In this document: positions 10,501-64,000 of the stretch, in pieces | Position numbering within the stretch: position 1 is the first letter of the stretch | How the letters are laid out: each line of letters opens with the position of its first letter | Origin: Acutalibacteraceae bacterium | GTDB lineage: Bacteria; Bacillota; Clostridia; Oscillospirales; Acutalibacteraceae | Direction: 5' to 3' | Assembly: GCA_045646305.1 (NCBI GenBank) | Contig: JAZRKK010000065.1 | Location: forward strand, 11,660 to 75,659 | DNA length: 64,000 nt | Translations under genes and position numbers: made by a program | Notes under the pieces: model-generated | Told to the model about the DNA's origin: nothing | The model's input: the letters and a program-made list of their open reading frames with translations, nothing else | The model's database searches: none

Positions 10501-10501
10501 T

Positions 10502-11179: not shown

Positions 11180-11379
11180 TACTTATCTTGAAAATATGCA
11201 TTAAGTTTTTCTACAAGTTCATCTGCATTTGCGCCGTGAACTGCACAAGCCTGTTCTATTGACTCGCCGCGTGAAGCTGGACAGCCAAGGCAATGCATAC
11301 CAATTTCAAAAAAGTATTTTGCAGCGCCTGTATCTATATCCAAAACATCGCCTACGATCATATCTTTTGTAATTTTCAT
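11179..11379 (-). CDS. DUF1858 / hybrid-cluster-protein-associated redox disulfide domain protein
   Basis: 66 aa. MHCLGCPASRGESIEQAC motif. The stop overlaps the trmK start. Confidence 0.6.
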   Translation of the reverse strand: MKITKDMIVGDVLDIDTGAAKYFFEIGMHCLGCPASRGESIEQACAVHGANADELVEKLNAYFQDK

Positions 11380-11407
11380 TTTATTTACTTCCTTTCAATA
11401 TTTAAAC

Positions 11408-12379: not shown

Positions 12380-12398
12380 AATTACATTCCTTTACAAT

Positions 12399-14776: not shown

Positions 14777-14791
14777 AATAAAAACCTCTAA

Positions 14792-16366
14792 TCATTTAAG
14801 ATAGTTGTCGGGCAAATCATTTTCCCAAAGAACAACACTGTTATAATCAAGCATAGGTGTATAAATTTCTGTCGCTTCTTTAAAACTTGAAACAACATAT
14901 ACGTTATTTTGGTCGAAATCCGTAGTGTTTATAGCATCCATCATTGGTTTTGAACGTTCTTTTCCTACAAGAATTATTACATCACAATATTTTGATGCCT
15001 CAAGCCCTAACGCATAATTACAATCATATTCGCGAGAACCCAATTCAATTAGTCCGGGAGTTACTATTATCTTGCGTTTTCCTTCAAAAGAACCCAGTAC
15101 TCTTACCGCCTCAAGGCAACCCTCTGGATTTGAATTATAAGCATCATCTATAAGCAATGAACCGTTTGTAAAATTTTTAAGTTCAAGTCGATGCTCTGTT
15201 GGTTTTAATGAACCAATCGCAAACTTTATATCATTTTCATTTACGCCTAAAATGTGTGCCATTGCAGCAGCAGCTAAAATATCACTTACCGAATGAACAC
15301 CTAAAAGGCGAGTGCTAACGGTAAATACAGTTCCATCTAACCATAAATCAAATGTTGTTCCATCTTCACCACAAACTATATTTTTAGCCTGGTATTTTGT
15401 ACCTTCGCCAAAATACACAACATCACTACGGCTATCACTTCTTTCCTTGATTCCAACACTATCAAGGTTAGCAAGTGTTATACCACCTTTTTTTCTAACA
15501 GCACTAGCTAGTTCAAACTTTGTCCTAAAAACGTTGTTAACTGATTTAAAGGTTTCAAGATGTTGCTCACCAACTGAGGTAATAATGCCGTAATCAGGAT
15601 GCGCTATGTCGCAAATTTCTTTTATGTCACCAACATTTTTAGCACCCATCTCACAAACAAACATTTGTGTTTGTGGTTTTATATGGCCGCGAACAGTACG
15701 CACAACTCCCATAGGAGTGTTAAAACTTTGTGGAGTGCAAACGGTATTGTATTTTTCGCTTAAAATTCGATTTAGGATAAACTTGGTTGTTGTTTTGCCA
15801 TAACTACCAGTAATTCCTATAACAGTCAAATTTTTATGTGATTTTAAAATACGCTTTGCATCATTTATATACCAAGCACCAACTGCCTTTTCGATTGGAT
15901 ATGTTACAAGCCAAATTATCGTTGTCAAAACTGGAGTTACAACTGACAACGCAACACAAAGTATACGAGCCATGTTTCCGAAAACAGTGTAATAAGAGTA
16001 TATACTACCAAAAAGCACTACTCCTAAAATTACAATAGCTGTAATATACAATCTTTTTACTCTATCGGTAAAAACGAGTTTTTTAATTGATTTTTTATGT
16101 GTTTTGATATTCGAAAGAATTCTTACTACCAACAACACTATTGCAAGTATTAAGCACAACCATACTCTGTTTTTCAAAATAAATGTTGTAAGTGCACAAT
16201 AAAGTATTGCGCTTACAGCAAGTTCCAGCGTATAAGAGCCGCTTACCCATTTAAAATATCTTGATAGGAAGTATGAATTTTGCTGTAACATTTGAATTTG
16301 ACGATAAAGAGAAAATACTGCGCCAACCGTTAACAATAATAATGATACAAAAGGAATATATACCAT
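14792..16366 (-). CDS. MurF-type Mur ligase with an N-terminal multi-pass membrane domain
   Basis: 524 aa. P-loop GITGSYGKTTTK, plus EMGAKNVGDI, HLETFKS and DDAYNSNPEG (MurF-like). The first 165 aa or so form 4-5 hydrophobic helices in place of the usual MurF N-domain. Confidence 0.65.
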   Translation of the reverse strand: MVYIPFVSLLLLTVGAVFSLYRQIQMLQQNSYFLSRYFKWVSGSYTLELAVSAILYCALTTFILKNRVWLCLILAIVLLVVRILSNIKTHKKSIKKLVFTDRVKRLYITAIVILGVVLFGSIYSYYTVFGNMARILCVALSVVTPVLTTIIWLVTYPIEKAVGAWYINDAKRILKSHKNLTVIGITGSYGKTTTKFILNRILSEKYNTVCTPQSFNTPMGVVRTVRGHIKPQTQMFVCEMGAKNVGDIKEICDIAHPDYGIITSVGEQHLETFKSVNNVFRTKFELASAVRKKGGITLANLDSVGIKERSDSRSDVVYFGEGTKYQAKNIVCGEDGTTFDLWLDGTVFTVSTRLLGVHSVSDILAAAAMAHILGVNENDIKFAIGSLKPTEHRLELKNFTNGSLLIDDAYNSNPEGCLEAVRVLGSFEGKRKIIVTPGLIELGSREYDCNYALGLEASKYCDVIILVGKERSKPMMDAINTTDFDQNNVYVVSSFKEATEIYTPMLDYNSVVLWENDLPDNYLK

Positions 16367-50323: not shown

Positions 50324-50684
50324 AAGCGCCTCAAAGTGGGAGACACATCGTAAAGAAGTTTCTCCCAATTCTCTTTTTATATAAAAATTGACACTTTCAA
50401 CTTGAAAGTGTCATAATGGGTTACATAATTTGAAATAATACACATCTCAACGATACATACAATTAGTGTTATTGTGAGACCGGTCTCACAGTGATATTTT
50501 TCCTTGCGACAAAGTGATATTAAAACCTTTGGTTTTAGTTATATTATATTCGCCCTACAGCTCGCGAAGCGAATATCACTTGAACTTTAGTTCAAATATC
50601 ACTGCGAAGCAATATAACTCGCCTTTGGCGAATATAACTGAGGCACACTTCCATACGGAGTGTGCCTCTTATTGAGGCGCTTTT
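50322..50684. repeat. Inverted-repeat-bounded non-coding unit with a 9-mer repeat array (candidate sRNA or MITE-like element)
   Basis: 13-bp perfect terminal inverted repeats AAAAGCGCCTCAA (50322-50334) and TTGAGGCGCTTTT (50672-50684). AGTGATATT/AGTTATATT occurs at 50490, 50513 and 50537. AATATCACT/AATATAACT occurs at 50572, 50595, 50611 and 50631. There are short hairpins between the repeats, a terminal hairpin at 50640-50668, and no ORF of 60 aa or more. Confidence 0.5.
50388..50417 (+). promoter_or_regulatory. Strong sigma-A-like promoter with an embedded 12+12-bp palindrome
   Basis: TTGACA (50388-50393), an 18-nt spacer, then the extended -10 TGTCATAAT (50409-50417). TGACACTTTCAA-c-TTGAAAGTGTCA (50389-50413) is a perfect inverted repeat. 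No ORF lies downstream. Confidence 0.55.
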
Positions 50685-50698
50685 AAATTACCAAAAAC

Positions 50699-51229
50699 TT
50701 ATTCAATTCTCGAACCTAAAAATCTAGCCGCAACTTCAGCCAATTTTATATCGGTGTCGGTAAGGGTTGTATACCCATCTTTTTCAAGAAAAACCACGCT
50801 ACCGGTTATATCCCCTGCCGAAATTATTGGAGCCGCAACACAGATTTGGCGCTCACAACCATCAAGTGCAAAAACAGGTGTAGTATCATCTTTTAAAAAC
50901 ATTTGACGCTCTTCGGTAATTTTTTCAAGCTGAGCGCTAACCGGTTTTTCAAGTAATTCACGCTTTGGCGCACCGCCCACAGCCACGCAGTGATCACGGT
51001 CGCAAATAATAACTGCCAATCTGGTAGCCTCGGAAAGCGCCGCAGCATAATCGGCAGAAAAAGATGTCATCTCACCCATTGGCGAATACTTTTTGAAAAT
51101 AACTTCACCATTACTGGTAAAAATTTCCAACGGGTCTCCCTCACGGATTCGCATCGTTCTTCTAATTTCTTTTGGTATAACCACGCGACCGAGGTCATCA
51201 ATTCTTCTAACAATTCCAGTTGCTTTCAT
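50699..51229 (-). CDS. spoVT: Stage V sporulation protein T (AbrB-type N-domain plus GAF-like C-domain)
   Basis: The start was moved to ATG 51229 (AAGGAG 9 nt upstream). MKATGIVRRIDDLGRVVIPKEIRRTMRIREGDPLEIF is followed by a C-terminal domain of about 125 aa. At 176 aa it matches the size of SpoVT. Confidence 0.85.
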   Translation of the reverse strand: MKATGIVRRIDDLGRVVIPKEIRRTMRIREGDPLEIFTSNGEVIFKKYSPMGEMTSFSADYAAALSEATRLAVIICDRDHCVAVGGAPKRELLEKPVSAQLEKITEERQMFLKDDTTPVFALDGCERQICVAAPIISAGDITGSVVFLEKDGYTTLTDTDIKLAEVAARFLGSRIE

Positions 51230-51328
51230 ATATAAATTCTCCTTTAATTTCAAATCGTGATACTATTATTTGTCAACAAAGAAAAATTATACTTTCGTTT
51301 AAAAATCGTTTGTTGACTTTTTCAACTA

Positions 51329-51368
51329 AAAATGATATCATAATATCAAGATATTATGATATCATTTT
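51329..51368. promoter_or_regulatory. 40-bp perfect palindrome (putative operator) upstream of the RHH/R-M unit
   Basis: AAAATGATATCATAATATC-aa-GATATTATGATATCATTTT: 19-bp arms with no mismatch. A TTGACT box lies at 51312-51317, and the GGAGG RBS follows directly. Confidence 0.7.
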
Positions 51369-51380
51369 GGAGGGTTGCAG

Positions 51381-51560
51381 ATGAACAATTCCAAGACTCC
51401 GACATCAAAAAAAATAGGTATTCCCTTACGATTAGAGCCTAAATTGTACGAAAAAATGATGGATAGAGTTCAAAAAAAGAAAAAAGAGCAACGAGGATAT
51501 AGTATTAATCAGTTGCTTACTGAATTACTTGAAAAAGAATTAAAGGAGAATAAATTATGA
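51381..51560 (+). CDS. Ribbon-helix-helix (CopG/Arc-type) small DNA-binding protein, putative R-M controller
   Basis: 59 aa from ATG 51381 (GGAGGG 6 nt upstream). The predicted beta-strand IGIPLRLEP and the two helices LYEKMMDRV and SINQLLTELLEKEL fit an RHH fold. The stop overlaps the next gene. Confidence 0.6.
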   Translation: MNNSKTPTSKKIGIPLRLEPKLYEKMMDRVQKKKKEQRGYSINQLLTELLEKELKENKL

Positions 51561-53940
51561 TTAGAACTGATATAATTTCTACTATAGGAAGAGAATATCT
51601 TACAACTAACATAGAAAATGATGAGTTTAGTTACCCCAAAGCATATAAGGAGGCGGGGCTAATCTTTTCTCCTATAAAAAATTCTTCTGGTAGAAAATTC
51701 GAAAAATTAGATATTCGTTTTGTAAAAGATGGAATAACTGTTCTTGTGGAAACCAAACAACAATTTGTTGACCTTGACGAAGAACAGCTATCTGCTTATG
51801 TTGAATATGAAAAAGCGCTTACTGGAAATAAGATAATAGCAATATTGGCTAACACTGAAAACGATAGCATTAAAGTTTGGCGTGGTGTTGTTTCTAACAA
51901 TACTATTCTTGAAAAAGAAAATTCTTTGCGTTCGATGAACGAATATATAGATTTCTATACTTCAAAAATTAATGACAAAGAAAAAATTATGTCAAATACA
52001 TATAAGCTAAACAAAATGTTGCACAAGCACGGAATTGCTGAAGAATTGAGAAGCCAATTTGTAGGCACCTGTTTGTTAAGTTTAAAAAATGGTCTCGATT
52101 ATAATATCCCCTCATTATCAGCTTCCCAAATAAGAGCTCGGATTAAAGACACTTTAGAAGATTTATTAACCAACGATATTAACAAGGCAGGAAAATTATC
52201 GTTATTAGAAAAAAATGTTCTTCTCTCGCAAGATATAAGGGCATTACCTGTTGAGAGTTTTCGTGAAATATTAAAATATATAGATAAAAATATTTTGCCA
52301 TTTATAAATGATAAAAGCACTTCAGGACAAGACTTATTGAACCTTTTCTTTGTAACATTCAATAAATATGTTAAAACCAATAAAAATCTAGCTTTTACAC
52401 CGGATCACATCACTAGTTTTATGGCAAAAATCACTGGAATAAATAAGCACTCTGTTATTCTCGATCCTTGTTGTGGAAGCGGGTCTTTTTTGGTGAGAGC
52501 TATGACACAAGCATTAGAGGATTGTTCGACGGAAAAAGAACAAGATAAAATTAAAAAGCAAAATATTTTTGGTATCGAATACGATGAAAATATCTATGGC
52601 CTGTCTACAACTAATATGCTGATACATTCTGACGGAAATTCCAACATAGTCCAAGGCAGTTGCTTTGATTTTGAAGAATGGATACAGGCAGCAAAGCCAA
52701 ACGTAATTTTAATGAATCCTCCATACAATGCACAAAGAAAACACATGCCAAAAGCTTATACAAAAAGTTGGAGCAGGGACAAGAAAGAGGATCCGTCAAA
52801 AGGTCTATATTTTGTTAAATATATAGCTGATACACTGAATAAAGTAGATCTTCAAGCAACTCTCGCTGTCTTACTGCCTGTTGCTTGTGCCATTGGCACT
52901 AGCAAAGTAATAGAAAAACTAAAAATCGAAATTCTAAAAGAAAATACTTTAGACGCTGTTTTTACTCTTCCAGGTGATGTGTTCCATCCTGCTGCTGCGC
53001 CTTCAGCGTGTTGCATGGTCTTCAAGATAGGAAAAAGCACACTGACATCAGCAATCCTGCTACGTTTTTTGGGTACTATAAAAACGATGGCTTCAAGAAA
53101 AAGAAAAATTTAGGAAGGGTAGAACAAACAGACGTTAATGGTTATAGTCTTTGGAATCAAATAGAAAAAAATTGGATTGAGCTTTATCGAGATAGAAAAT
53201 CAGTAGATGGTCTCTCTGCAACACAAAGAGTAACCGGTAAAGATGAGTGGCTATGCGAAGCATATATGAAAACTGATTACTCAACCTTAACCGAAGGTTT
53301 ATTTCAGCAGACAATTAATAACTATATGTCGTATTTAATTAAATTTGGAAAATACCCAAACGCTACTTTATCACCTTCTTCTGCCCAGAAATTAAACATT
53401 GTTGATTGGAAAGAATTTTTTGTTTTGAAAACAGATAATACCCCTGGACTATTTTTGATTGAAAGTTGTAAATGTGGATGTGCAGGTGACCTTGACGACG
53501 GAGAGGATTTAAATTATATAGGCGCAAAAAAATCAGATAATGGTGTTATGAAAAAAGTAGCAAAAGATGAGAATTTATTATCTACGGGCAATGGTATTTT
53601 ATTTATATGCGATGGTGAAGGTTCCGTTGGATACACTAATTATATGGATGAAGATTTTATAGGTTCCACAACTACCTCTATAGGCTACAATAAAAACTTA
53701 AATGTGTATAATGCCTTATTTATGGTAACTGTTTTAGATCAAGAAAAATTTAAATATTCTTATGGTCGAAAATATCGTGCAAACTTAGAAAAAATAACAA
53801 TTAAATTACCAATCAAATATAATAACGATAAAACGCCGTATATTGATGATACACATGAATATTCTAATGATGGTTATGTCCCTGATTGGGATTATATGGA
53901 GAAATATATAAAATCATTACCTTATGGAGATAGGATCTAA
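51557..53940 (+). pseudogene. Type IIG-like fused endonuclease / N6-adenine methyltransferase / specificity protein, split by a frameshift
   Basis: Track ORFs 51557-53113 and 53008-53940 overlap in different frames. There is an N-terminal PD-ExK-like motif (KLDIRF...VLVETKQ), motif I DPCCGSGSF, and motif IV NPPY (52715-52726). The methyltransferase C-terminal motif continues across the shift: ..CCMVFKIGK | KHTDISNPATFFGYYKNDGF. Adding one A to the A5 run at 53042-53046 restores a single ORF of about 795 aa. Confidence 0.7.
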
Positions 53941-53943
53941 CAA

Positions 53944-53974
53944 CAAAAGCGAGGTGAAATTCACCTCGCTTTTG
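53944..53974. terminator. Palindromic terminator H1 (GCGAGGTGAAATTCACCTCGC family)
   Basis: CAAAAGCGAGGTG-aaatt-CACCTCGCTTTTG, 4 nt after the stop codon at 53940. Shared by the convergent remnant B. Confidence 0.75.
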
Positions 53975-54045
53975 TTATGTATAAAAACCGCCGAAAAACC
54001 CTGTTTTGACACCAATGCGTTCAATGGGGCAAACCGGCGATAACC

Positions 54046-54126
54046 CTAGTGTTTATGCGGTTTTCTCGACTTTTGTCCTATTATACCATATTCCTCAATT
54101 CTTCTCACAATTCCAGTTGCTTTCAT
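54046..54126 (-). pseudogene. spoVT/abrB 5'-end remnant B (26-codon ORF MKATGIVRRIEEYGIIGQKSRKPHKH)
   Basis: Hand translation. The first 10 codons are identical in protein to spoVT. AAGGAG lies upstream, and the sequence diverges after RRIE. Confidence 0.65.
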
Positions 54127-54378
54127 ATATTCATTTCTCCTTATCGACATTTTGTAGGGGACGGCGAAAAAACATCGATATCCAAACGGGATGTCGTAAA
54201 CGCCATCCCCTACAACAAAATTTTCAAATTGTTATGTTAGTATTTGTGATTAAAGGGAATTTATATTTGCTATTTATCATTTTTTGATTACAACTAACGG
54301 TTGTAAAATTTACAAATACCAAACGCTTGAATATTTTACTAAATGCAATTATACTTATGTTAAAGGAGTTGATTTATA

Positions 54379-55956
54379 ATGACATTAGGAAAATCAATCA
54401 TTAAAATACGCAACGCCATGAATTTATCGCAAGAACAATTTGCATCTATTTTTGACGTATCTCAACAATCGGTACAAAAGTGGGAAAGTGAAAATTCCTC
54501 ACCTTCACTTGATAAAATTATACAGATTTCAAAATATTTTGGTATTTCTTTAGATGCGTTGATTTTAGGAAATGACAACCGCATCGTAGAAGAAATGAAA
54601 AACTCTCATCTTGTGAAACCACAATATGAAAATATTCATGAATGGGAGTTTTATTCTTCAAATCTTTTAACCGAATATGCGCAATCTATAGAAGAAGGTT
54701 TAGATATTGAAAGGTATAAAGATATTTTTTCTTCTATAGCTAAATTACCCCAAAACGAAATTAAGAAAAAATTTGGTGATGTACTTTACGAAATTATAAG
54801 TAATGCAAACCAACGAAAAGATTATCCGTATATAGAGCCTTCAGATTTAGAAACTATCCAAAATTTAAGAAAGTCCTATTCCTATGAACCGCAATCGGAA
54901 ATAAACATTGAAGATAAGATTTTTGGTGCTTGGTTAGGTAGGATTTGCGGTTGTATGCTCGGTAAAACTTTAGAAGGAATTCGTACCAGCGAACTTATTC
55001 CATTTCTAAAAGCAACAAACAATTTCCCTTTACATCGCTATATTTCACAAGATGACACAAAAAATGAAATTACTCAAAAATTCGTATTTTCAATTGTTAA
55101 CAGACCACTAGCAGATTGCGTTGATGGTATGCCAGTAGATGATGATACCAACTATACCGTTTTATATCAGGAAATTATTGAAACATATGGAAAAGATTTT
55201 ACTCCTTTCGACATAGCTCAGACTTGGTTGAAACTTCAGTCTAAAGATTCCTATTGTACCGCCGAAAGAGTTGCTTTTTGTAATTTTGTGAAGGGTTATG
55301 CCCCACCTGAATCAGCAATTTACAAAAATCCTTATCGTGAATGGATTGGAGCACAAATTCGCGCAGATTACTTCGGATATATTAATCCCGGCAACCCAGA
55401 ACTTGCCGCAGAAATGGCATGGCGTGATGCATCTATATCACATACTAAAAACGGAATTTACGGTGAAATGTTTGTGGCGGCAATGCTCAGTATTGCTGCA
55501 GAAACAAATAATATCAGAGATATTATATTTGGCGGTCTTGCTCAAATTCCTCATACCTCCAGACTTTATGAAGAAATTATGTTTGTTTTGAACGCTTTCG
55601 AAACAAACATATCTAAAGAAGAGTGTTTCAAAACAATCCATGACAAATATGATGAATATACTGCACACGGTTGGTGTCATACCATTCCAAATGCAATGAT
55701 TGTAGCTGCATCACTTCTTTATGGAAACAGCGATTATGGCAAATCTATTTGTATGGCGGTAGAAACAGGATTTGATACGGATTGTAACGGTGCTACAGTT
55801 GGCTCAATTTTAGGTATGGCAAATGGCGTTGATACCATTCCTGAATATTGGTCAAAACCAATTAATAATACCTTACACACTTCGATTTTTGGTGTGGGTA
55901 CTGTGAAAATTAGTGATAGAGTAAAAATGACATTGAGGCACATAAATGAAAAATAA
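54379..55956 (+). CDS. XRE-type HTH domain fused to an ADP-ribosylglycohydrolase-family domain
   Basis: 525 aa. The N-terminus LSQEQFASIFDVSQQSVQKWESENSSPSLDKIIQISKYFGISLDALI is a classic HTH_3. The C-terminal ~350 aa have ARH-family features (GAWLGRICGCMLGKTLEG ... ETGFDTDCNGATVGSILG). Confidence 0.7.
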   Translation: MTLGKSIIKIRNAMNLSQEQFASIFDVSQQSVQKWESENSSPSLDKIIQISKYFGISLDALILGNDNRIVEEMKNSHLVKPQYENIHEWEFYSSNLLTEYAQSIEEGLDIERYKDIFSSIAKLPQNEIKKKFGDVLYEIISNANQRKDYPYIEPSDLETIQNLRKSYSYEPQSEINIEDKIFGAWLGRICGCMLGKTLEGIRTSELIPFLKATNNFPLHRYISQDDTKNEITQKFVFSIVNRPLADCVDGMPVDDDTNYTVLYQEIIETYGKDFTPFDIAQTWLKLQSKDSYCTAERVAFCNFVKGYAPPESAIYKNPYREWIGAQIRADYFGYINPGNPELAAEMAWRDASISHTKNGIYGEMFVAAMLSIAAETNNIRDIIFGGLAQIPHTSRLYEEIMFVLNAFETNISKEECFKTIHDKYDEYTAHGWCHTIPNAMIVAASLLYGNSDYGKSICMAVETGFDTDCNGATVGSILGMANGVDTIPEYWSKPINNTLHTSIFGVGTVKISDRVKMTLRHINEK

Positions 55957-56842
55957 AATACTTGTAATAGGCAGTGCAAATATAGACCTTGTTATACATT
56001 CCGACAAAATGCCCAAACTTGGTGAAACCTTGATTGGAAATAATTTTCAAACGAATGCAGGCGGCAAGGGACTTAACCAAGCCGTTGCAATAGCAAAGCT
56101 AAACGGTAATGTTTCGTTTTTAGGAGCAGTTGGGAAGGACTCTAACGGCGAATTTTTACTAAACACCTTAACGGAATATGGTGTAGAGTTTAAGGGAAAC
56201 ATTTCCGAAAACGCACCCACCGGCACCGCAATGATAACCGTTGTTGGCGGTGATAACTTCATTTTGCTGGATGCCGGTGCTAATAAAACCATTACCCCTG
56301 ATGTTGTTCGCGAGAAAAAGGAGCTTATTGCCAAAAGCGATTTTTGCGTTTTACAGCTTGAAATTCCAACCGAAACCATTTTGGAAATTTGCAAAATTGC
56401 ACAAGAAAACTGCACAAAGGTAGTTTTTAATCCCGCACCGTTTAAACAATTACCCAAAGAAATATATTCTTTTGTAGATTATCTTATTCCAAACGAACAC
56501 GAAGCCGAATCTCTTACAGGAATTTGTATAGATAGTAAGGCTTCGATAATAAAAGCAATAGAAAAAATCAAGCTGCTCGGCGTAAAAGATGTTGTTATAA
56601 CTTTAGGTGACAGAGGTTGTGCTTATACCGATGGCAACCAAGTGGTTTTCCGGTCTGCAGAAAATGTAACAGCAGTAGATACCACCTCTGCCGGAGATTG
56701 CTTTATCGGTGCGCTTATATCAGTGCTTTCTAAAAACAAGCCTATTTCTGAGGCGATAACTTTTGCTACCAAAGCGTCGGCGATCACCGTGACGCGCGAA
56801 GGAGCAGCAAAATCAATTCCCTTTGCAAATGAAGTGGAATAA
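55946..56842 (+). CDS. rbsK: Ribokinase (PfkB family)
   Basis: 298 aa. ILVIGSANIDLV, NAGGKGLNQAVA and DTTSAGDCFIGAL. The start overlaps the upstream gene by 11 nt. Confidence 0.8.
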   Translation: MKNKILVIGSANIDLVIHSDKMPKLGETLIGNNFQTNAGGKGLNQAVAIAKLNGNVSFLGAVGKDSNGEFLLNTLTEYGVEFKGNISENAPTGTAMITVVGGDNFILLDAGANKTITPDVVREKKELIAKSDFCVLQLEIPTETILEICKIAQENCTKVVFNPAPFKQLPKEIYSFVDYLIPNEHEAESLTGICIDSKASIIKAIEKIKLLGVKDVVITLGDRGCAYTDGNQVVFRSAENVTAVDTTSAGDCFIGALISVLSKNKPISEAITFATKASAITVTREGAAKSIPFANEVE

Positions 56843-56845
56843 ACC

Positions 56846-56874
56846 AAAAGCGAGGTGAATTTCACCTCGCTTTC
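56846..56874. terminator. Palindromic terminator H2 (same family as H1)
   Basis: AAAAGCGAGGTGAATTTCACCTCGCTTTC, 4 nt after the rbsK stop. Confidence 0.75.
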
Positions 56875-56945
56875 GTTATGTATCGGTCAAAATATGCTAT
56901 TTTCGTCAAAAATTTTTCTTCAAAAATCGCCCATAAACCCTGTGT

Positions 56946-57020
56946 TTATAAGGCTTTATCGCACTTTTGTGTTATTATTACACGAGCCTCAATTCTTCTC
57001 ACAATACCTGTTGCTTTCAT
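56946..57020 (-). pseudogene. spoVT/abrB 5'-end remnant C (24-codon ORF MKATGIVRRIEARVIITQKCDKAL)
   Basis: Hand translation. It has the same break point as remnant B. The downstream ~100 nt are homologous to B, and the upstream TTTACAGATACTA..AAGGAG is homologous to the spoVT upstream region. Confidence 0.65.
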
Positions 57021-57153
57021 ATATACAAAAATCTCCTTGCTTTACAAATTTGTACTGTTAGTATCTGTAAACACACGAGATTTATACTGTATAACTTTAC
57101 TTTTTAGTTAGAGTGTGATATAATCGAGAAAACTTTTTTAAGGAGAATATTTT

Positions 57154-57837
57154 ATGGGCAAAATTTCAGAAATTTTCAACTTCGATAACATCGGTTCAAA
57201 AATCAAAAATTTGGCAAAGTGGTCTTGTTGGATTACCATTTTACTTATTTGGATTGTTGCTCCGATTTCGTTTATTGCTTTGGTGGCTGATGATTGGACT
57301 GCTGAATTTTGCTGGATTCCGCTTGTTGGCGCTATTGTCGGTCCTGTTTTCGTGTGGATTGGCAGTTGGACAATGTACGCCTTTGGTGAGTTTGTTGATG
57401 ATATTCACGCTATGCGTGACAAAGAAGGAACTACAGAAGAGGTAAAAGCAAAACGCGAATTAGAGGCAAGAATAAAGCGCGAAGCCGAACTGAAAGCGCA
57501 ACAAGAAGCGGCCGAAAGGGCTAAACGTGAGGCAGAAGAAAGAGCTGCTCAAAACGAAAAACATTTAGACGATGATGAAATTTTATACGACCAACATATT
57601 TGTTCGTCCGAGGAGGAGCTAAAACAGTATATCGAAAAAGTATTAGATGAAAAATCTAGACCAAAAGAACTGTTAGATTTATACTGGAAGTACAAGAAAT
57701 ATGTTTATGGATATTATCCTGCAAGTGATGTAAAAAAAGCATTAGGAGAAGTAATTAAAATTTGCGAAAAAGAAGAGTATGAAGGAAATTCACAATTGAT
57801 GATAACTGTTTCTAAAAGAAAATTGTCAACTTTATAA
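57154..57837 (+). CDS. Hypothetical membrane protein with a charged coiled-coil segment
   Basis: 227 aa. Two TM helices, then KAKRELEARIKREAELKAQQEAAERAKREAEERAAQ. Confidence 0.6.
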   Translation: MGKISEIFNFDNIGSKIKNLAKWSCWITILLIWIVAPISFIALVADDWTAEFCWIPLVGAIVGPVFVWIGSWTMYAFGEFVDDIHAMRDKEGTTEEVKAKRELEARIKREAELKAQQEAAERAKREAEERAAQNEKHLDDDEILYDQHICSSEEELKQYIEKVLDEKSRPKELLDLYWKYKKYVYGYYPASDVKKALGEVIKICEKEEYEGNSQLMITVSKRKLSTL

Positions 57838-57870
57838 AAATAGCGGAGTGATAATCACTCCGCTATTTTT
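57836..57870. terminator. Palindromic terminator H5 (variant AGCGGAGTGA-taa-TCACTCCGCT)
   Basis: A5 and T5 flanks. The stops of both convergent ORFs (57835-57837 and 57863-57865) lie in or next to the stem. Confidence 0.75.
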
Positions 57871-58036
57871 TATATCTATTTACCTCGCTATGTATAGCCC
57901 AACAAAACGTTTCTTCCTGTGTCAATGAGTTATCCAGCGGCTCTCCCTCTCTTATCCTCATAGTGCGACGGATTTCTTTCGGTATAACAACACGACCCAA
58001 ATCGTCTATTCTACGAACTATTCCAGTGGCTTTCAT
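57863..58036 (-). CDS. Truncated AbrB/SpoVT-type protein D (57 aa), possibly a pseudogene
   Basis: The start was moved to ATG 58036 (AAGGAG 9 nt upstream). MKATGIVRRIDDLGRVVIPKEIRRTMRIREGEPL is followed by the unrelated tail DNSLTQEETFCWAIHSEVNRYKK. Confidence 0.55.
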   Translation of the reverse strand: MKATGIVRRIDDLGRVVIPKEIRRTMRIREGEPLDNSLTQEETFCWAIHSEVNRYKK

Positions 58037-58212
58037 ATATAAAAACTCCTTTGTTGATTTGATAACATTGTTATTATCTGTCAACAAAGGAGTTTTATAC
58101 TAGATTTAATCATTTTCACAATACACTGCCAAGATTTACTCTTAAAAATCATAGAATAAATATTTTTAAATCTCAATATAAAGCATAACAATCCGTACTA
58201 TTTAGAATATGC

Positions 58213-58719
58213 CTAATCGAATTTTTCCATAAACATTCCCTCAAGTTCTATACCACCCTCAACCTTTTTAGCAGTATAGTGTTCTGTTTTGCCGTTTGAA
58301 TATCCCTCCCACTCATTATGGTGTAATGAAAAAGTTATATTCGTATCAGAGACATCCCAAAAACCACGCATAACATCATTGTCTATATCACTCCTATGTT
58401 CTACTGTTCCATCTGCACAAAATTTAATTGCTACTGTATATTTTGCACTTTCATCTTGCATTGTTATGCGATAAGTTCCAACTATTTCTTCACGAAGCGC
58501 AGATTGAGCATTTGTAGCCGCATTAACGATAGAGCTTGTTTCGGTAGGTTCGCTTGATTCGGTTGAGTCACTTGAATTGGTAGAATCACTTGTTTGATTT
58601 TCAGTCGAAGTGATTTGTGAATTGTCGCTCATTACATCACTTGTAGTGTTATCTTTGCTACAAGCAGTTAAGCAAAACACGAAACAAATTGATAAAATTA
58701 TCGCTAAAGTCTTTTTCAT
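58213..58719 (-). CDS. Hypothetical lipoprotein
   Basis: The start was moved to ATG 58719 (GGGGA RBS). Lipobox in MKKTLAIILSICFVFCLTAC, followed by a Ser/Thr-rich linker. Confidence 0.65.
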   Translation of the reverse strand: MKKTLAIILSICFVFCLTACSKDNTTSDVMSDNSQITSTENQTSDSTNSSDSTESSEPTETSSIVNAATNAQSALREEIVGTYRITMQDESAKYTVAIKFCADGTVEHRSDIDNDVMRGFWDVSDTNITFSLHHNEWEGYSNGKTEHYTAKKVEGGIELEGMFMEKFD

Positions 58720-58776
58720 TTTATCTATCCCCAATCATAATGGATTTTATGATTGTATTATAAATCAAATGGCCAA

Positions 58777-58956
58777 TTATTGCAATATCGATTTATATCT
58801 TTCCACAACACTATGTATCGCAATGCAAAACTTATCGATTGGTGTCAATGTTGTCAGTAGAGGGTCTCCCTCTCTTATCCTCATAGTTCTTCTAATTTCT
58901 TTCGGGATAACAACACGACCAAGGTCTTCAATTCTTCTCACAATACCAGTTGCTTT
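58777..58956 (-). pseudogene. spoVT/abrB remnant E (start codon lost)
   Basis: Encodes (K)ATGIVRRIEDLGRVVIPKEIRRTMRIREGDPL plus the tail LTTLTPIDKFCIAIHSVVERYKSILQ, which is homologous to the tail of copy D. An in-frame TAA replaces the ATG. Confidence 0.65.
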
Positions 58957-59007
58957 TTAATATATAGTATGATATAATTAAAAAACAAACTGAAAGGTTG
59001 ATTTATT

Positions 59008-59550
59008 ATGAAAAAAAGAATTGTAAACGCAGTCCAGCTGTTATTAATTATCGTTTCGTATATTATGCTATCTATTGCTAATATAAAACTTGTTTCAGGT
59101 GGTGCTGTTTCTGTATTAGGCGCATCAAAAAAATATGCTTTACAGTTTTATCCTATGTGTGTTTTATATCTCGTTTGCGCTATAATGTGTATCGTTTCAA
59201 TAGTATCAAAAAAGGCTTATAAAGACGGAAAAATACATAGTATATTAGCTGTTATTTTGTTTTTTATCACCAATTGGAATATGGCAACATGTGTATCAAG
59301 TGATGAAATTGCTGTAAACAATTTCCCTGTTTTAGCTTTTGAAATCATTTTATTTCTAGCAGTTGTTATTTCTTTTGTAAAACGTTCCCCACTAATTGCT
59401 CCTACAGTTTCTGAACAACCACAAGTAGTTAATAATATTCAAGAAACAAGCAATGCCGATGAGCTTTTAAAATATAAAAATCTTTTAGACCAGGGTGCAA
59501 TAACACAAGAAGAATATGATAAAAAGAAAAGCGAATTATTGAATCAATAA
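59008..59550 (+). CDS. Membrane protein with a C-terminal SHOCT domain
   Basis: 180 aa, about 4 TM helices. The C-terminus ELLKYKNLLDQGAITQEEYDKKKSELL is a SHOCT motif. Confidence 0.65.
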   Translation: MKKRIVNAVQLLLIIVSYIMLSIANIKLVSGGAVSVLGASKKYALQFYPMCVLYLVCAIMCIVSIVSKKAYKDGKIHSILAVILFFITNWNMATCVSSDEIAVNNFPVLAFEIILFLAVVISFVKRSPLIAPTVSEQPQVVNNIQETSNADELLKYKNLLDQGAITQEEYDKKKSELLNQ

Positions 59551-59555
59551 TTATA

Positions 59556-59583
59556 ACAAGCGAGGTGAATTCACCTCGCTTGT
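59556..59583. terminator. Palindromic terminator H3 (same family)
   Basis: ACAAGCGAGGTGAATTCACCTCGCTTGT followed by T6, 6 nt after the stop codon at 59550. Confidence 0.75.
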
Positions 59584-59686
59584 TTTTTATAATAATTTAC
59601 TTTTAAAACAAAGTATGCTATAATTAAATAACAGATTAGTTAAACTTTTGATATTTTAGAACGAATTTTAAAAAAGGAGGAGAAAT

Positions 59687-60754
59687 ATGACTTTAAAAAG
59701 TGATGCTCTTTTTTGGAAAAAGAAAGAGTTTGTTTCATTTTTGCTGAGCATTCTTGTATTTTTTATTCATTCGTATTTTGCACAGGACATTGTCAGCGAC
59801 AGTTTTATTTCTGTTGTCAATCATAAGGTTTCTTACTTTTTTTCTTGTTCTATTACTCAGTTTGCTGTACCTATGTTTTTTGTTTTGTCGGGAATATCTT
59901 TTTTCAAGGGTTATGACAACAAAAAATATTTAACCAAAATTAAAAGCCGCTTGTTTACATTGGTTATACCGTATTTACTTTGGAACACGATTTGGATGCT
60001 TTGGGAAATTTTTACTTCTTATTCGTTTGTTTCAAAATTTTCCACAAATAGCGAACCCTACCCTTTGACCTTAACAAGTATACTAAAAGGTGTTTTTTTC
60101 TACGGGTGTAACACTCCGTTTTGGTTTATATTCAATTTAATCGTATTTTCATTTGCAGCACCGATTGTATTTTTGATTATTAAAAACAAATATGTAGGCA
60201 TAATTTCCATCATGTGTTTATCCATAATATCGTTATTTGGAATACAACTGCCAACGAGCGTGTTTTATTATCCTATGGCTATTGTTTTTTATATGATTGG
60301 CGCCATTATTGGTTATCATTTCTTTGATTTTGTTTCAAAAAAATCATCAAAACCAATGCAAATTGCTTCTTTAATTTTCATTTTGGCATATATTATAGCT
60401 AAAAATATAGCACCACAGGAAATACATATTAACAACTATTTAATCCAAACCATCGTATATACCCTTGCGGCATTTTCTTTATGGAACGTTACTGATATTT
60501 TTATCGAATGTATCAAACCCCGCGCAATCTATCGCCGCTCGTTTGCGATTTATGCGATGCACCTTAACATAGGCATAATTTTACTTAAATTATTTTCGTT
60601 TTGCACCCCACAAAATGAGTGGCTTGAAATTCCAAAATTTATAGTTATGATTGTTTTAACACTTGTAATCATAAATTTTATATGTGCTTTTTTAGAAAAG
60701 TTTGCCCCCAAAATTTACGCAACACTTATGGGAAATCGAATAAACAAAAATTAA
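59687..60754 (+). CDS. Acyltransferase family 3 (membrane O-acyltransferase)
   Basis: 355 aa, about 10 TM helices. The overall pattern is typical of the Acyl_transf_3 family. A GGAGG RBS is present. Confidence 0.65.
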   Translation: MTLKSDALFWKKKEFVSFLLSILVFFIHSYFAQDIVSDSFISVVNHKVSYFFSCSITQFAVPMFFVLSGISFFKGYDNKKYLTKIKSRLFTLVIPYLLWNTIWMLWEIFTSYSFVSKFSTNSEPYPLTLTSILKGVFFYGCNTPFWFIFNLIVFSFAAPIVFLIIKNKYVGIISIMCLSIISLFGIQLPTSVFYYPMAIVFYMIGAIIGYHFFDFVSKKSSKPMQIASLIFILAYIIAKNIAPQEIHINNYLIQTIVYTLAAFSLWNVTDIFIECIKPRAIYRRSFAIYAMHLNIGIILLKLFSFCTPQNEWLEIPKFIVMIVLTLVIINFICAFLEKFAPKIYATLMGNRINKN

Positions 60755-60775
60755 GCGAGGTGAAATTCACCTCGC
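60755..60775. terminator. Palindromic terminator H4 (same family)
   Basis: GCGAGGTGAAATTCACCTCGC starts immediately after the stop codon at 60754. It is shared with the convergent transporter gene. Confidence 0.7.
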
Positions 60776-60788
60776 CGCTTTTTATACA

Positions 60789-61748
60789 TTAAATAAAAAC
60801 ATTTATTAACCAATAAAGTGTTGGTATTGTCAAAACAGAAAGCACGGTTGTACCTAGTGTAAAGACAACCGCATTGTCGGAGTCACCGCCAAATTCATCA
60901 GCAAAGGTAGCTGCAAGTCCTGCTGTTGGCATAGCAAACGCAACAAACACGCCTAAAATTATGCTATCCATAGGAAGATCTATCGCAACCGACTTTAAGG
61001 CAATTAACGCCGCTGTTATGACAGCTGGGAATACAATCAATTTTAAGAATGAAACGTAATAAAGTTTTCCGGATTTAAAAAGTGACGAAAGGCTAACAGC
61101 GCCTAATTTGATACCCATGATAGTCATAGAAATTGGGGTAACTACCGAACTGAAATAATCGGAGAATGTGATTACCTCGGGAACGTAGTCGCTCACCTTT
61201 AAAAGATTAAATGCACAACCCAAAACAAATGCGATTAAAACAGGGTTTAAAAATGCTTTTTTAAAGCTTATATTTTTCTTGTCACCTGTGGTAAGGTAGG
61301 CGCCTAATGTATACATTAACACATTGTTGATAATGTTAAGTAGTATCAACACTGTAAAAACGGTTGACTCTCGACCAAACACAGCAATCGCAAGTGGTAT
61401 GCCTAAAAATCCGTTGTTGGCAAAAACCGAACAAAAACGCATCATACCGGCTGTTTTTTCATTGCCTTCCATCTTGACAAGTGGTTTTGATGCAAAAAAT
61501 ATAACAAAAGTATATGCAATACCAATCAGCGCAACCACACCCATCATTAACAAAGACTCTTTATTAAAAGTCAAATTATTAACAACACCCGAAAAAATCA
61601 GAAATGGCATTGCCAAATACATCAAAATTTTTGAAAGAACTCCTGATTGCTCGGGCTTTAGGATTTTGCCCTTTACTAAGATATATCCAGGAATAGCAAG
61701 TGCCACAAAAATTAGCACATTGCGCAACATAATTATAAACTCGCCCAT
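60789..61748 (-). CDS. AEC (auxin efflux carrier) family transporter
   Basis: 319 aa, about 10 TM helices. The size and hydrophobic profile are typical of AEC-family permeases. Confidence 0.65.
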   Translation of the reverse strand: MGEFIIMLRNVLIFVALAIPGYILVKGKILKPEQSGVLSKILMYLAMPFLIFSGVVNNLTFNKESLLMMGVVALIGIAYTFVIFFASKPLVKMEGNEKTAGMMRFCSVFANNGFLGIPLAIAVFGRESTVFTVLILLNIINNVLMYTLGAYLTTGDKKNISFKKAFLNPVLIAFVLGCAFNLLKVSDYVPEVITFSDYFSSVVTPISMTIMGIKLGAVSLSSLFKSGKLYYVSFLKLIVFPAVITAALIALKSVAIDLPMDSIILGVFVAFAMPTAGLAATFADEFGGDSDNAVVFTLGTTVLSVLTIPTLYWLINVFI

Positions 61749-61921
61749 AGTTAGCCTCCGATTTGTACTTTTGATAAGCTGTTTGTTTTTTTTAATTTTA
61801 CATCAAATCAAAGCAAATATCAAGGTTTTAAACAAATTTGATAGTTGTGTTTTTGTGCGCTTTACTTTTTTAAAAATTGTGTTTATAATATATATTGTTA
61901 TATTTGAAAGGGGGATTAGCT

Positions 61922-62635
61922 ATGCTTAAAGCGATTTGTGATATAAAAGACCCTGATTCTTTTTCAAAAATAGAACCTATAAATTCTAAGTTTTTTTGCC
62001 TTAAAGATGGTGAGTTTTTTGATGTCAAAATGCAGTATCCGATTTTAAATATTAAAAGCGCTGTGAAAGAATGTTATGTGCGCGAGGAAGTCTTTGAGCG
62101 ATTAAAGATCGCGCAAAACAATCTTCCACATGGATTAAAGCTTTGTATCTTGGATGCGTGGCGACCTTTTGCATTGCAAGAAGAACTTTACCAAATATAT
62201 TCAAAGCAAATTATTACACAGTTCAATTTAAAAGATTCACCTTTAGAGGTCAAACAAAAAGTAATAGCAAAGTATGTATCTACCCCCGTAAAAGACAAAC
62301 TTGAACCTGCTGTTCACACAACGGGTGGCGCTGTTGATGTTACGCTGATATGCGCCGATGGCACCCCTCTTGATATGGGAACAACATTTGATGCATTTAG
62401 CGAAAAGACAAAAACCAATTACTACGAAACGCATCAAGAAAACACTATCATTCGCAACAATCGCCGCATTTTGTATAACAGTATGATTTCTGCCGGATTT
62501 ACCAATTTGCCTTCGGAATGGTGGCATTATGACTTTGGAAACAAGTTTTGGGGGTATTATACTGACACACCCGCGTTTTATTCGGGAGTGTTTGATGTAA
62601 ATGAACTTTCAAAGTTTTTAAATCTTACCGATTAA
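61922..62635 (+). CDS. D-alanyl-D-alanine dipeptidase (VanX/DdpX, peptidase M15D)
   Basis: The start was moved to ATG 61922 (AAAGGGGGA RBS). LDAWRP, HTTGGAVDV and SEWWHYDF match the zinc and catalytic motifs of VanX-type dipeptidases. Confidence 0.75.
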   Translation: MLKAICDIKDPDSFSKIEPINSKFFCLKDGEFFDVKMQYPILNIKSAVKECYVREEVFERLKIAQNNLPHGLKLCILDAWRPFALQEELYQIYSKQIITQFNLKDSPLEVKQKVIAKYVSTPVKDKLEPAVHTTGGAVDVTLICADGTPLDMGTTFDAFSEKTKTNYYETHQENTIIRNNRRILYNSMISAGFTNLPSEWWHYDFGNKFWGYYTDTPAFYSGVFDVNELSKFLNLTD

Positions 62636-62677
62636 ATTTATAAATAGCACTTGAAAACAAACGATTAGAGTGATAAT

Positions 62678-63658
62678 ATGAAGCGGGAAAGGATGGTGAT
62701 TTGTTTGGTTTTGGCATATGTTTTCACTTTTTTAAAAAATGCTATTTACGGAACAACTAATTTTTTTACCAAAGGCCTAAACTCAAACAATATTGATGCC
62801 ATTGATATTTTAGCTTTGCGCTTTTTGCTAAGCTTTTTGGTTTTGTGGTTACTCAAGGTCACAAAAATAGTTAAAATAAATATTGGTATAAAAGATTTTT
62901 TCAAAAAAACCGAACGCCATCAATATATAAAACCTTTGTTTTTAGCGGCACTTTTTTCGCCTGTTATCGAAATGCTTTTTGAAACGACAGGCTTTACAAA
63001 AACCTCGGCTGTTACAGCGGGTGTTATTTTGTCATTGATGCCTATTTTTGCTTGTGTGATTGAAAGTTTGATTCTTAAAGAGAGCACAACAACAATGCAA
63101 AAAGTGTTTTTAATACTCGGTGTGGTTGGTGTTATATATATCGCAGTAAACACAAATACCTCAAGCGGTAGCGATACCTTGTTTGGAATATTTTGTTTGT
63201 TTTTGGCGACCATTGCGGGACCCACTTATTTGGTTTTTTCACGGCAAAGTTCAGGCAAATTCAAGCCTTTAGAAATCACCTATTTTTCTTGTCTTTTAGG
63301 CACGTTTGTTTTTAATGCTATGAGCGCTGTAAAACATTTATGGCAGGGCGATATTATTCATTACTTTGATCCGTATTTTAATCCTGAAAATATTCTTGGA
63401 TTTGTTACACTTTCTATCATATCCACCATTTTCTGTACCCTTATGAACAATTTTGCTATGTCAAAATTGCAAGCATCAACCGTATCGGCGTTTGGTGGTA
63501 TTTCAACGGTTGTTACAATCCTTATTGGCGTTATTTTTCTTAAAGAAACATTATACTATTTTCATTACATAGGGTTTGCGCTTATATTTATAAGAATTAT
63601 CGGCGTAAGCTATATCGCTATAAAAAAAGATAAACAAAAAATATCAGGAGGAAACTAA
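62678..63658 (+). CDS. EamA/DMT-family transporter
   Basis: 326 aa, about 10 TM helices in two EamA-like halves. Confidence 0.7.
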   Translation: MKRERMVICLVLAYVFTFLKNAIYGTTNFFTKGLNSNNIDAIDILALRFLLSFLVLWLLKVTKIVKINIGIKDFFKKTERHQYIKPLFLAALFSPVIEMLFETTGFTKTSAVTAGVILSLMPIFACVIESLILKESTTTMQKVFLILGVVGVIYIAVNTNTSSGSDTLFGIFCLFLATIAGPTYLVFSRQSSGKFKPLEITYFSCLLGTFVFNAMSAVKHLWQGDIIHYFDPYFNPENILGFVTLSIISTIFCTLMNNFAMSKLQASTVSAFGGISTVVTILIGVIFLKETLYYFHYIGFALIFIRIIGVSYIAIKKDKQKISGGN

Positions 63659-63659
63659 A

Positions 63660-64000
63660 ATGATATTTGGTGTTTTAAAAGATATTAAAGAGGGCGAAAA
63701 TCGTGTTATTTGCACACCGATTGAAGTTGCTTCGATTGTTGCGGCAGGACATACTGTTCTGGCTCAGCGCGATTGTGGCGTAGGCTCAGGTTTTTCAAAC
63801 GAAAAATACGAAGCTGCGGGCGCTGAGATTGTTGATACAATGGAAGAAATGTATGCTCGTTGTGATTTTCTTGCCAAGGTTAAGGAATTATTCCCCTGTG
63901 AATATGATTTGTTGCGCGAAGATCAACTCGTTTACTGTTGTATTCATCCGGCCGGTCACCCAGAAGAAGTTGATGCTATACTCAAGAGCAAATGTATCGC
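63660..64000 (+). CDS. ald: Alanine dehydrogenase, N-terminal part (continues beyond the window)
   Basis: MIFGVLKDIKEGENRVICTPIEVASIVAAGHTVLAQRDCGVGSGFSNEKYEAAGAEIV matches the AlaDH/PNT N-terminal domain. There is no stop codon before the window end. Confidence 0.8.
   Translation, partial: MIFGVLKDIKEGENRVICTPIEVASIVAAGHTVLAQRDCGVGSGFSNEKYEAAGAEIVDTMEEMYARCDFLAKVKELFPCEYDLLREDQLVYCCIHPAGHPEEVDAILKSKCI

Follow-up and report, generated by a model that had tools for sequence, protein, structure and literature searches.

The window analyzed here is the whole of a 64,000 nt stretch of DNA from an Acutalibacteraceae bacterium (contig JAZRKK010000065.1), and all positions given are those of the window. 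It contains an intact spoVT gene (copy A) at 50699-51229 on the minus strand, with its ATG at 51229. The predicted protein of 176 amino acids matched the Pfam families SpoVT_C (1.3e-34) and MazE_antitoxin (2.6e-10). Four further copies of the spoVT 5' end (B to E) lie upstream of A, all on the minus strand and interspersed with accessory genes. These repeated gene starts are most probably attL-type scars, each left at one end of a cassette, and the cassettes were inserted in a nested fashion by site-specific recombination of the serine recombinase type. Four observations carry this reading: junctions exactly at a GA dinucleotide, an attP site built as an inverted repeat, large serine recombinase (LSR) genes at both target sites in relatives, and wide occurrence.

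The five copies placed here by the initial annotation were all found, with the start of E at 58959, where TAA stands in place of ATG. A 32 nt gene-start probe recovered A, B and C with three mismatches or fewer, and the shuffle expectation was zero. Two classes of break point had been proposed. The classes stand, and their positions were refined. In class 1 (B and C) spoVT sequence is retained through the GA of codon 11 (nt 31-32). In class 2 (D and E) it is retained through the GA of codon 32 (nt 94-95), not to codon 33. The corresponding target sites in A are the GA at 51199/51198 for class 1 and the GA at 51136/51135 for class 2, both on the minus strand. Homology beyond the junction within each class had also been noted, and these sequences are the P' arms of element ends. 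In the window the P' motifs are confined to the four scars.

Scar B is a class-1 attL at 53944-54126 on the minus strand (ATG at 54126). In it an older spoVT start, comprising codons 1-10 and the GA, runs into the P' arm GGAATATGGTATAATAGGACAAAAG. A non-coding tail of approximately 110 nt, the box TATACATAACAAAAGCGAGGTGA and a hairpin terminator follow. The outer motif of this P' arm, AGGACAAAA, mirrors the true P arm found in locus L042. Scar C, also a class-1 attL on the minus strand, lies at 56845-57020 (ATG at 57020) and has the same composition. Its codons 1-10 and GA lead into the P' arm GGCTCGTGTAATAATAACACAAAAG, behind which come a tail and a hairpin. Its P' arm mirrors the P arm of locus L113 at 15 of 28 positions, and 24 of 10,000 shuffles were as good.

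Scar D is a class-2 attL at 57863-58036 on the minus strand (ATG at 58036) and forms an intact open reading frame (ORF) of 57 amino acids. The ORF comprises SpoVT residues 1-32 and a tail (..PLDNSLTQEETFCWAIHSEVNRYKK) that begins with the P' arm GCCGCTGGATAACTCATTGACAC. Scar E, the second class-2 attL, lies at 58777-58959 on the minus strand and has lost its promoter as well as its start codon. It contains the P' arm CCCTCTACTGACAACATTGACAC and the tail LTTLTPIDKFCIAIHSVVERYKSILQ. The P' motifs that open the tails of D and E are GATAACTCATTGACAC and TGACAACATTGACAC. All four remnants were initially thought to converge on one 3' box and one terminator family. This is true of B and C, which share the 3' sequence TATACATAAC(A/G)AAAGCGAGGTGAA and a hairpin. 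It does not apply to D, in which ATACATAGCGAGGT falls in the tail codons AIHSEV and the hairpin is different, nor to E, in which the ATACATAG codons are present and the hairpin is absent.

A motif GTATAA-N16/17-GATA(C/A)TA upstream of the copies resembles the forespore sigma-G/F consensus and is presumably a promoter. This predicted forespore-type promoter is kept upstream of C, to approximately 57095, and of D, to approximately 58110. Scar B was without the conserved promoter block of A, C and D (54150-54215, minus strand). A long inverted repeat, GTAGGGGATGGCG...CGCCGTCCCCTAC, replaces the promoter upstream of its ribosome-binding site (RBS), and a similar structure was seen at position 2627 of locus L017. 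A 14-mer resembling a P arm in the 5' untranslated region of D (58059-58072) had two mismatches. As approximately 0.4 such matches were expected by chance in the window, it was dropped.

Copies of one gene segment that lie close together in the same orientation could also come from local tandem duplication, if the duplicated spoVT 5' regions later decayed neutrally and unrelated DNA was inserted. The pattern of divergence makes this very improbable. A and D differ at 24 nt over 33 codons, with 17 synonymous codon differences and 1 non-synonymous. Among 14 class-2 scars from several genomes the differing codons numbered 1,388 synonymous and 77 non-synonymous. Since nearly all divergence is synonymous, each copy evolved within a working gene and not by in situ decay of a duplication. 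B is only 68% identical to A while being 85% identical to a scar in another species (L004, 6972-7156), and C is likewise 85% identical to a scar in L017 (2620-2800). Both break points were also identical in all 25 scar-bearing genomes described below.

Relatives were scanned at one genome per species, which gave 80 spoVT loci, 79 of them with an intact spoVT. All belong to uncultured Acutalibacteraceae, Oscillospiraceae and related Clostridia, and the closest had 64% identity to the window SpoVT protein. A search of relatives for the remnants had been suggested, and it was productive. One to five same-strand scars were present upstream of spoVT in 25 of the 79 intact loci, giving 36 scars in addition to the four in the window. 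With the window's four included, 20 were class 1, 16 were class 2 and four fitted neither class. A class-2 scar is an ORF of approximately 57-60 amino acids, made up of SpoVT residues 1-33 and the tail xTTLTPFDKFCxAIHSVVERYKxxx. A class-1 scar has 11 codons and behind them approximately 110 nt in which similarity is unbroken by stop codons; TATACATAGCAAA and a hairpin come last. Arrays mix the classes, and in L017, with up to five scars, the order is 2', 1, 1, 2, 2 and then spoVT. Identical promoter-mimic and tail variants recur across species with different cargo. Minimal cassettes of 0.8-1.3 kb, consisting of scar, cargo and full-length spoVT, were found in L092 and L114. The spoVT that follows the minimal class-2 cassette of L092 (10808-11340) has an in-frame TGA at codon 23 and is either a pseudogene or the product of an assembly error.

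The region upstream of spoVT is a hypervariable insertion hot spot. In the 5 kb upstream the largest shared ORF family was present in 3 of 52 loci, compared to 13 of 70 downstream. Clustering of the ORFs upstream of spoVT showed a region that is almost wholly non-recurrent, with no recurrent recombinase. The cassettes of relatives contained 60 ORFs in 22 loci, comprising accessory and defence genes, with no recombinase among the 25 families listed. Families included AraC regulators, GH3, BspA-LRR, N6_Mtase/Eco57I, Abi_2, Schlafen/AlbA_2, TOTE primase and TIR_2. A pattern scan of a viral-contig collection for class-1 scars gave one match only, at 245-550 of L091 (IMG/VR contig IMGVR_UViG_3300029489_000263). 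It adjoins what we take, from reading the sequence, to be the N-terminus of an IS256-like transposase, and was uninformative. The hot spot at the start of spoVT is widespread in uncultured gut Clostridia (Acutalibacteraceae, Oscillospiraceae), and no prior description was found. The initial annotation likewise knew of none, and a full-text literature search returned no paper that ties spoVT to serine recombinases or intervening elements.

The class-1 crossover was located by comparing two metagenome strains, L084 and L087. Their flanks are 98-99% identical, and L084 has an extra recombinase-less cassette of 5.5 kb with both junctions exactly at the codon-11 GA. The empty site of L087 joins AGAATTGA to CGACCTCGG. 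In L084 the left junction joins AGAATTGA to GGAATATGGTATAATAGG (also given as AGAATTGA to GGAATATGG) and the right junction joins CGTATAGA to CGACCTCGG. The cassette has its own diverged promoter and first 32 nt, and GA alone is common to both partners. Serine recombinases typically use a crossover of 2 nt. The identical overlap required by tyrosine recombinases is longer, and homologous recombination depends on much more extensive identity. Repeated integration of elements carrying a piece of the target gene had been proposed initially, by single-crossover or site-specific means. The site-specific version holds, given the exact GA junctions and the LSRs of relatives. Campbell integration of the RecA type was rejected, since the partners at the class-1 crossover have no more than 2 nt in common. 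The L084 cassette sits in a class-2 attL, so class-2 scars still hold a usable class-1 site.

The recombinase side of the class-1 site was seen in two loci with a true, non-mimic P arm, ...TTTTGTCCTTACTTGACACAAGCA-GA-CGATTTAGG in L042 and ...GAGGACTTGACACGAGCA-GA-CGATCTGGG in L113. Both arms lie immediately downstream of LSR genes, of which that of L042 is truncated. In L113 an element resembling an integrative and conjugative element (10001-15370) closes with three to four tandem serine recombinase genes, placed directly upstream of a spoVT that is without codons 1-10. The reverse complements of the L042 and L113 P arms agree with the P' arms of B and C over two blocks, the inner being GCTCGTGT and the outer (A/G)GACAAAA or ACACAAAA. 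The dyad match extends to 15-16 of 28 positions, a level reached by 24 of 10,000 shuffles. An LSR of the class-1 family deleted into mid-spoVT was also found (P0279).

The class-2 site is linked to its recombinase within a single element. P0031, a homologue of the D ORF, has three distinct upstream settings, and in L084 an element of 8.8 kb comes after it. This element encodes a helix-turn-helix (HTH) gene, HipA, an AAA ATPase and a D5-type primase. The element ends in an ORF of 715 amino acids (13688-15835) with Resolvase, Recombinase, Zn_ribbon_recom and SpoVT_C domains. This ORF reads ...VNVINDGDPLEIFTD..., running from the recombinase straight into spoVT from codon 31. The attL of the element is ...CGCGAG GGCGACCCGCTG TTGATAACATTGACACC and the attR is ...GTCAATGTTATCAATGAC GGCGACCCGCTG GAGATT, with 12 nt in common. 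The attP reconstructed from them, GTCAATGTTATCAA-TGACGGC-GA-CCCGCTG-TTGATAACATTGAC, is a perfect 14 nt inverted repeat with the codon-32 GA at its centre and 7 nt on either side. In L081 and L087 one element end sits on different spoVT arms. These arms have 14 synonymous differences, the last at nt 93, and from the GA at nt 94-95 there were no mismatches in the next 166 nt compared. Fusions of an LSR to SpoVT_C, 704-718 amino acids in length, made up all 120 best clusters (P0121-P0240), and here and for the class-2 ORF homologues the cluster counts are lower bounds. Human gut metagenomes are rich in such fusions, and 511 member sequences were counted in one cluster alone.

Unfused relatives of the LSR have a tail of 25-30 amino acids after the (E/D)G(D/E)P core, for example P0366 (...REGEGFVTTLSLIERYCYAIV...). 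The LSR and spoVT reading frames coincide across the core, so the LSR ORF of an excised circle must end in the class-2 tail. By this deduction the class-2 tail would be the native C-terminal coding end of the LSR, and the hairpin behind it would be the terminator of the LSR gene. A tblastn search of phages with an LSR-plus-tail chimera gave a best match that runs off the end of its record. The next phage match, MT836658.1, is again an LSR-SpoVT_C fusion and not the excised form. The same search of plasmids returned only distant LSRs with 25-30% identity.

The copies could also be functional paralogues, with D and E as small AbrB/SpoVT-like proteins and B and C as small RNAs or peptides. All would be active in the forespore and maintained beside spoVT, the intervening accessory genes being incidental. 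The ORF of the D type is unbroken, and its full-length homologues of 57-60 amino acids form at least 120 clusters in gut metagenomes. A weak coding periodicity is seen in the tail (entropy of 0.60/0.48/0.84 at the three codon positions), C and D keep their forespore-type promoters, and class-1 tails are 80-88% identical between species. We nevertheless consider this explanation quite unlikely. The AbrB-like fold takes approximately 50 residues, of which D and E hold 32-33 codons and B and C hold 11. None of these four has a complete swapped-hairpin DNA-binding domain (approximately 45-50 residues, with MazE_antitoxin above the cut-off), and precomputed Pfam matches on scar-type ORFs are mostly classed as weak. 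E is without a start codon and a promoter. Similarity of the class-1 tails continues across stop codons, and the scar boundaries match insertion polymorphisms to the nucleotide. The conservation of the tails is otherwise explained by a P' site and by an LSR C-terminal coding end, as deduced from the shared frame, which would account for the weak periodicity. An Rfam scan of the island gave no match above the gathering score, and the class-1 tails matched no known RNA family. An RNA model for these tails was dropped, as their similarity through stop codons and the reading as P' arms account for them.

Read as cassettes, the segments between the scars each carry cargo and end in a P' tail. Cassette delta is class 1 and spans 51199-54095 (2,897 bp), as judged from repeat spacing, Pfam matches and junctions. 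In plus-strand order it begins with the promoter and spoVT codons 1-10 that now form the start of gene A. Its cargo is an ORF of 61 amino acids (51375-51560), an N6_Mtase ORF (51557-53113) and an ORF with a specificity domain, Methylase_S (53008-53940). It ends with a hairpin (53949-53969) and the P' tail that now closes scar B. The N6_Mtase and Methylase_S ORFs, both on the plus strand, overlap by approximately 100 nt in different frames. They represent either a frameshifted single restriction-modification gene or a two-ORF arrangement. Cassette gamma, also class 1, spans 54096-56989 (2,894 bp, again from the repeat spacing). Its promoter and codons 1-10 are now in scar B. The cargo is an HTH_3-ADP-ribosylglycohydrolase (ADP_ribosyl_GH) gene (54379-55956) and a PfkB kinase gene (55946-56842), and a hairpin (56850-56870) precedes the P' tail of scar C.

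The two class-2 cassettes are smaller. Cassette beta is contiguous over 953 bp (56990-57942) and, from the repeat spacing of 1,016, was originally 1,016 bp. Its promoter and codons 1-10 are now in scar C and its codons 11-31 in gene A. The cargo gene (57154-57837) encodes a coiled-coil membrane protein of 227 amino acids, and the cassette ends with a hairpin (57840-57866) and the P' tail of scar D. In locus L031 the N-terminal 90 amino acids of this membrane protein (83% identical) lie directly beside an intact spoVT. Cassette alpha spans 57943-58865 (923 bp, from a repeat spacing of 923). Its promoter and spoVT codons 1-31 are now in scar D and its P' tail is that of scar E. The cargo gene (58213-58734), on the spoVT strand, encodes a putative lipoprotein of 173 amino acids. 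The tail at E and the start of this gene are 85% identical to 6335-6629 of L017.

Beyond E the outer part of the island (58960-60790) contains a SHOCT gene (59008-59550) and an acyltransferase gene, Acyl_transf_3 (59687-60754), both identified by Pfam. Island-family hairpins follow the SHOCT gene (59560-59583) and the acyltransferase gene (60755-60775), and on the minus strand a remnant of a cassette tail end comes before each of them. Because of these same-family hairpins and tail-end remnants, the two units are probably older cassettes with eroded spoVT scars. Within the window the hairpin GCGAGGTGAAWTTCACCTCGC is restricted to the island, and its fourth near-copy is that at 59560-59583. Each hairpin is a plain GC-rich stem with a run of T behind it. 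The island was initially described as visibly more AT-rich than its flanks. The difference is present but only modest, with a GC content of 33.5% compared to 37.8% for positions 1-50698 and 35.7% for 60791-64000. The initial assignment of cargo was borne out by Pfam for N6_Mtase/Methylase_S, HTH_3-ADP_ribosyl_GH, PfkB, SHOCT and Acyl_transf_3. The ribbon-helix-helix (RHH) call for the ORF of 61 amino acids, the coiled-coil protein and the lipoprotein had no significant Pfam match. On the minus strand, 59 nt 3' of the spoVT stop, a sequence resembling Gut-1 RNA (RF01706) was found at 50568-50640, with 44.3 bits (gathering score 50) and an E value of 3.6e-6.

In the proposed mechanism cassettes would enter one after another within the first 100 nt of the spoVT coding sequence. 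One end of a circular cassette would carry a forespore-type promoter, an RBS and spoVT codons 1-10 or 1-31, a mimic that acts as the left arm. The other end would carry the P' arm of the recombinase attachment site and then the terminator. Crossover at GA would link the cassette mimic to the remainder of spoVT, so the gene stays intact, and the previous start would stay upstream fused to the P' arm. The scars would have formed in the order E and D (alpha and beta, at codon 32) and then C and B (gamma and delta, at codon 11), with at least two older cassettes beyond E. The 5' end of gene A would then be a mosaic, with codons 1-10 from delta, codons 11-31 from beta and the remainder ancestral. 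LSRs resembling those of the relatives would move the recombinase-less cassettes of the window in trans. The exact junctions of the recombinase-less 5.5-kb cassette of L084 argue for such mobilization, and a circular intermediate is predicted with it.

Several observations weigh against this interpretation. As the initial annotation had stated, no recombinase is encoded nearby; the window contained no serine or tyrosine recombinase homologue at E <= 0.5. Exact-protein look-up gave no record for the window SpoVT or the D ORF (P0001). When metagenomes were scanned with the C-terminal domain of SpoVT, no contig of the same species turned up, and the best match was 67% identical. No circular cassette was found among the searched contigs shorter than 15 kb, none of which had terminal repeats. 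The site of a recombinase-less cassette combines a B-type left arm resembling spoVT with a right arm of the P' type and is itself attL-like. Phage-type LSRs recombine only attP with attB, or attL with attR together with a recombination directionality factor (PMC3783163). With an attL-like site the cassette step needs a relaxed choice of partner or insertion through the attR of an autonomous element. In L081 the left end of the LSR element (1.6 kb, 97% identical to L084) is followed by a promoter and spoVT start, and this cassette stops within a gene (Couple_hipA). At least some cassettes would thus be born by illegitimate deletion. The sister species L016 and L017, with flanks 93-94% identical, have only modules in common between the asparaginase gene and position -83 of spoVT. 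Their variable region stops at -83 and not at GA, so other processes reshape the island too. From the conserved asparaginase gene to -83 the content of L016 (4998-9918) and L017 (921-9917) is wholly different.

Some of these observations would suit an explanation in which autonomous LSR elements split spoVT and the gene was repaired by homologous, or homology-facilitated illegitimate, recombination with an incoming intact spoVT. The cassettes would then be donor flanks. The L081 element end that stops in a gene before a promoter and spoVT start, the -83 boundary of L016/L017 and the lack of circles in the contigs searched are consistent with it. We consider it unlikely. Both junctions that distinguish L084 from L087 are at GA, with a diverged cassette side and a host side that is 99-100% identical, and such exact junctions are not expected of a homologous crossover. 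The same promoter-mimic and tail variants also occur in different species with different cargo. Serine-recombinase-type insertion of nested cassettes is therefore preferred.

A more far-reaching version can be put forward as a doubtful possibility. The spoVT start would be a dedicated gene-capture platform, at which LSRs shuttle cassettes by non-canonical pairing of an attL-like site with the intact gene or with attR. The left arm of each cassette would be disguised as the target promoter and first codons. Integration of an autonomous element would swap the LSR tail of approximately 25 amino acids for the SpoVT C-terminal domain, and this may couple recombinase activity or direction to the state of integration and possibly to forespore development. 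If true, it would be the first gene-intervening system in a forespore gene. The question raised is whether splitting a forespore regulator gene, or fusing a recombinase to a sensor domain, couples element mobility to sporulation. Apart from this, two natural attB/attP pairs with exact crossovers and candidate cognate LSRs (P0121-like and P0242-like) are available, and these may serve as integration tools for gut Firmicutes that are hard to engineer. The hot spot also shows where, in these genomes, turnover of defence and carbohydrate-use genes takes place.

Elements that intervene in sporulation genes include skin in sigK, SPbeta in spsM and gin in gerE (PMC5595907, PMC4191935, PMC5025042). 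One source describes gin as without phage genes and as having 'as many as three' of what are taken here to be recombinase genes (PMC5595907). The tandem LSR genes of L113 may resemble gin of B. cereus gerE as it is described there. Like these, the spoVT elements place an LSR-bearing element within the coding sequence of a sporulation gene. The described elements split mother-cell genes and are excised there, whereas spoVT in the window is unsplit and would be rebuilt by each cassette, with a split spoVT seen only in L084 and L113. In B. subtilis spoVT is a forespore (sigma-G) gene.

Tn5397 is a conjugative transposon whose LSR, TndX, carries out both integration and excision with a central GA crossover (PMC4430133). 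It differs in its preference for Fic-domain DNA, and stacked recombinase-less cassettes that mimic the target are not described for it (PMC4430133). The crossover at spoVT is also at GA and the gene set of the L113 element is comparable. In Myxococcus phage Mx8 (intP/intX) and the fusellovirus SSV1 (int) attP lies inside the integrase gene, and integration alters the C-terminus of the recombinase. The class-2 attP lies inside the LSR ORF, so that integration similarly swaps a tail of approximately 25 amino acids for the 145 amino acid C-terminal part of SpoVT. The enzymes of Mx8 and SSV1 are tyrosine recombinases, in contrast to the LSR and folded target domain at spoVT.

Direct repeats of a recombination site that divide an array of recombinase-less units, possibly served by an enzyme in trans, are also a feature of integrons and of cis-mobilizable elements (CIMEs). 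In Streptococcus thermophilus the accretion of CIMEs and integrative and conjugative elements at fda leaves directly repeated sites that partition recombinase-less units. Unlike an integron, the spoVT array has no adjacent integrase or folded sites of the attC type, its cassettes carry promoters and its crossover is of the 2 nt serine type. The window gave no tyrosine recombinase match, and what bounds each cassette is a gene start on one side and a P' arm on the other.

The closest analogue is the composite island of staphylococcal cassette chromosome (SCC) elements at rlmH. In SCC and SCCmec at rlmH (orfX), and in the Enterococcus cassette chromosome, LSRs insert cassettes at a single site in one end of a housekeeping gene without loss of that end, and att sites are repeated between tandem cassettes (PMC11470126, PMC6222049). 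Many cassettes, among them ACME, COMER and defence cassettes, are without a recombinase and are moved by the Ccr of a neighbour (PMC11470126, PMC6222049). In the spoVT island, too, repeated att sites (four scars and the intact site) partition recombinase-less units, and the cargo in both systems is accessory and defence genes. A unit restores the target gene end in both, as the L084 cassette does by bringing a promoter and codons 1-10. The spoVT island differs in its host, a lineage of gut Clostridia, in having a sporulation regulator as the target gene and in being without a recombinase. It has two att sites 63 nt apart in spoVT, two LSR families and nested scars. SCC carries a few 3' codons. 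At spoVT the target is the 5' end of the gene, and each cassette must therefore carry a promoter, an RBS and start codons. The spoVT island would thus be a 5'-end counterpart of SCC islands, in which a gene start can be used without inactivation through a mimic of the promoter and first codons.

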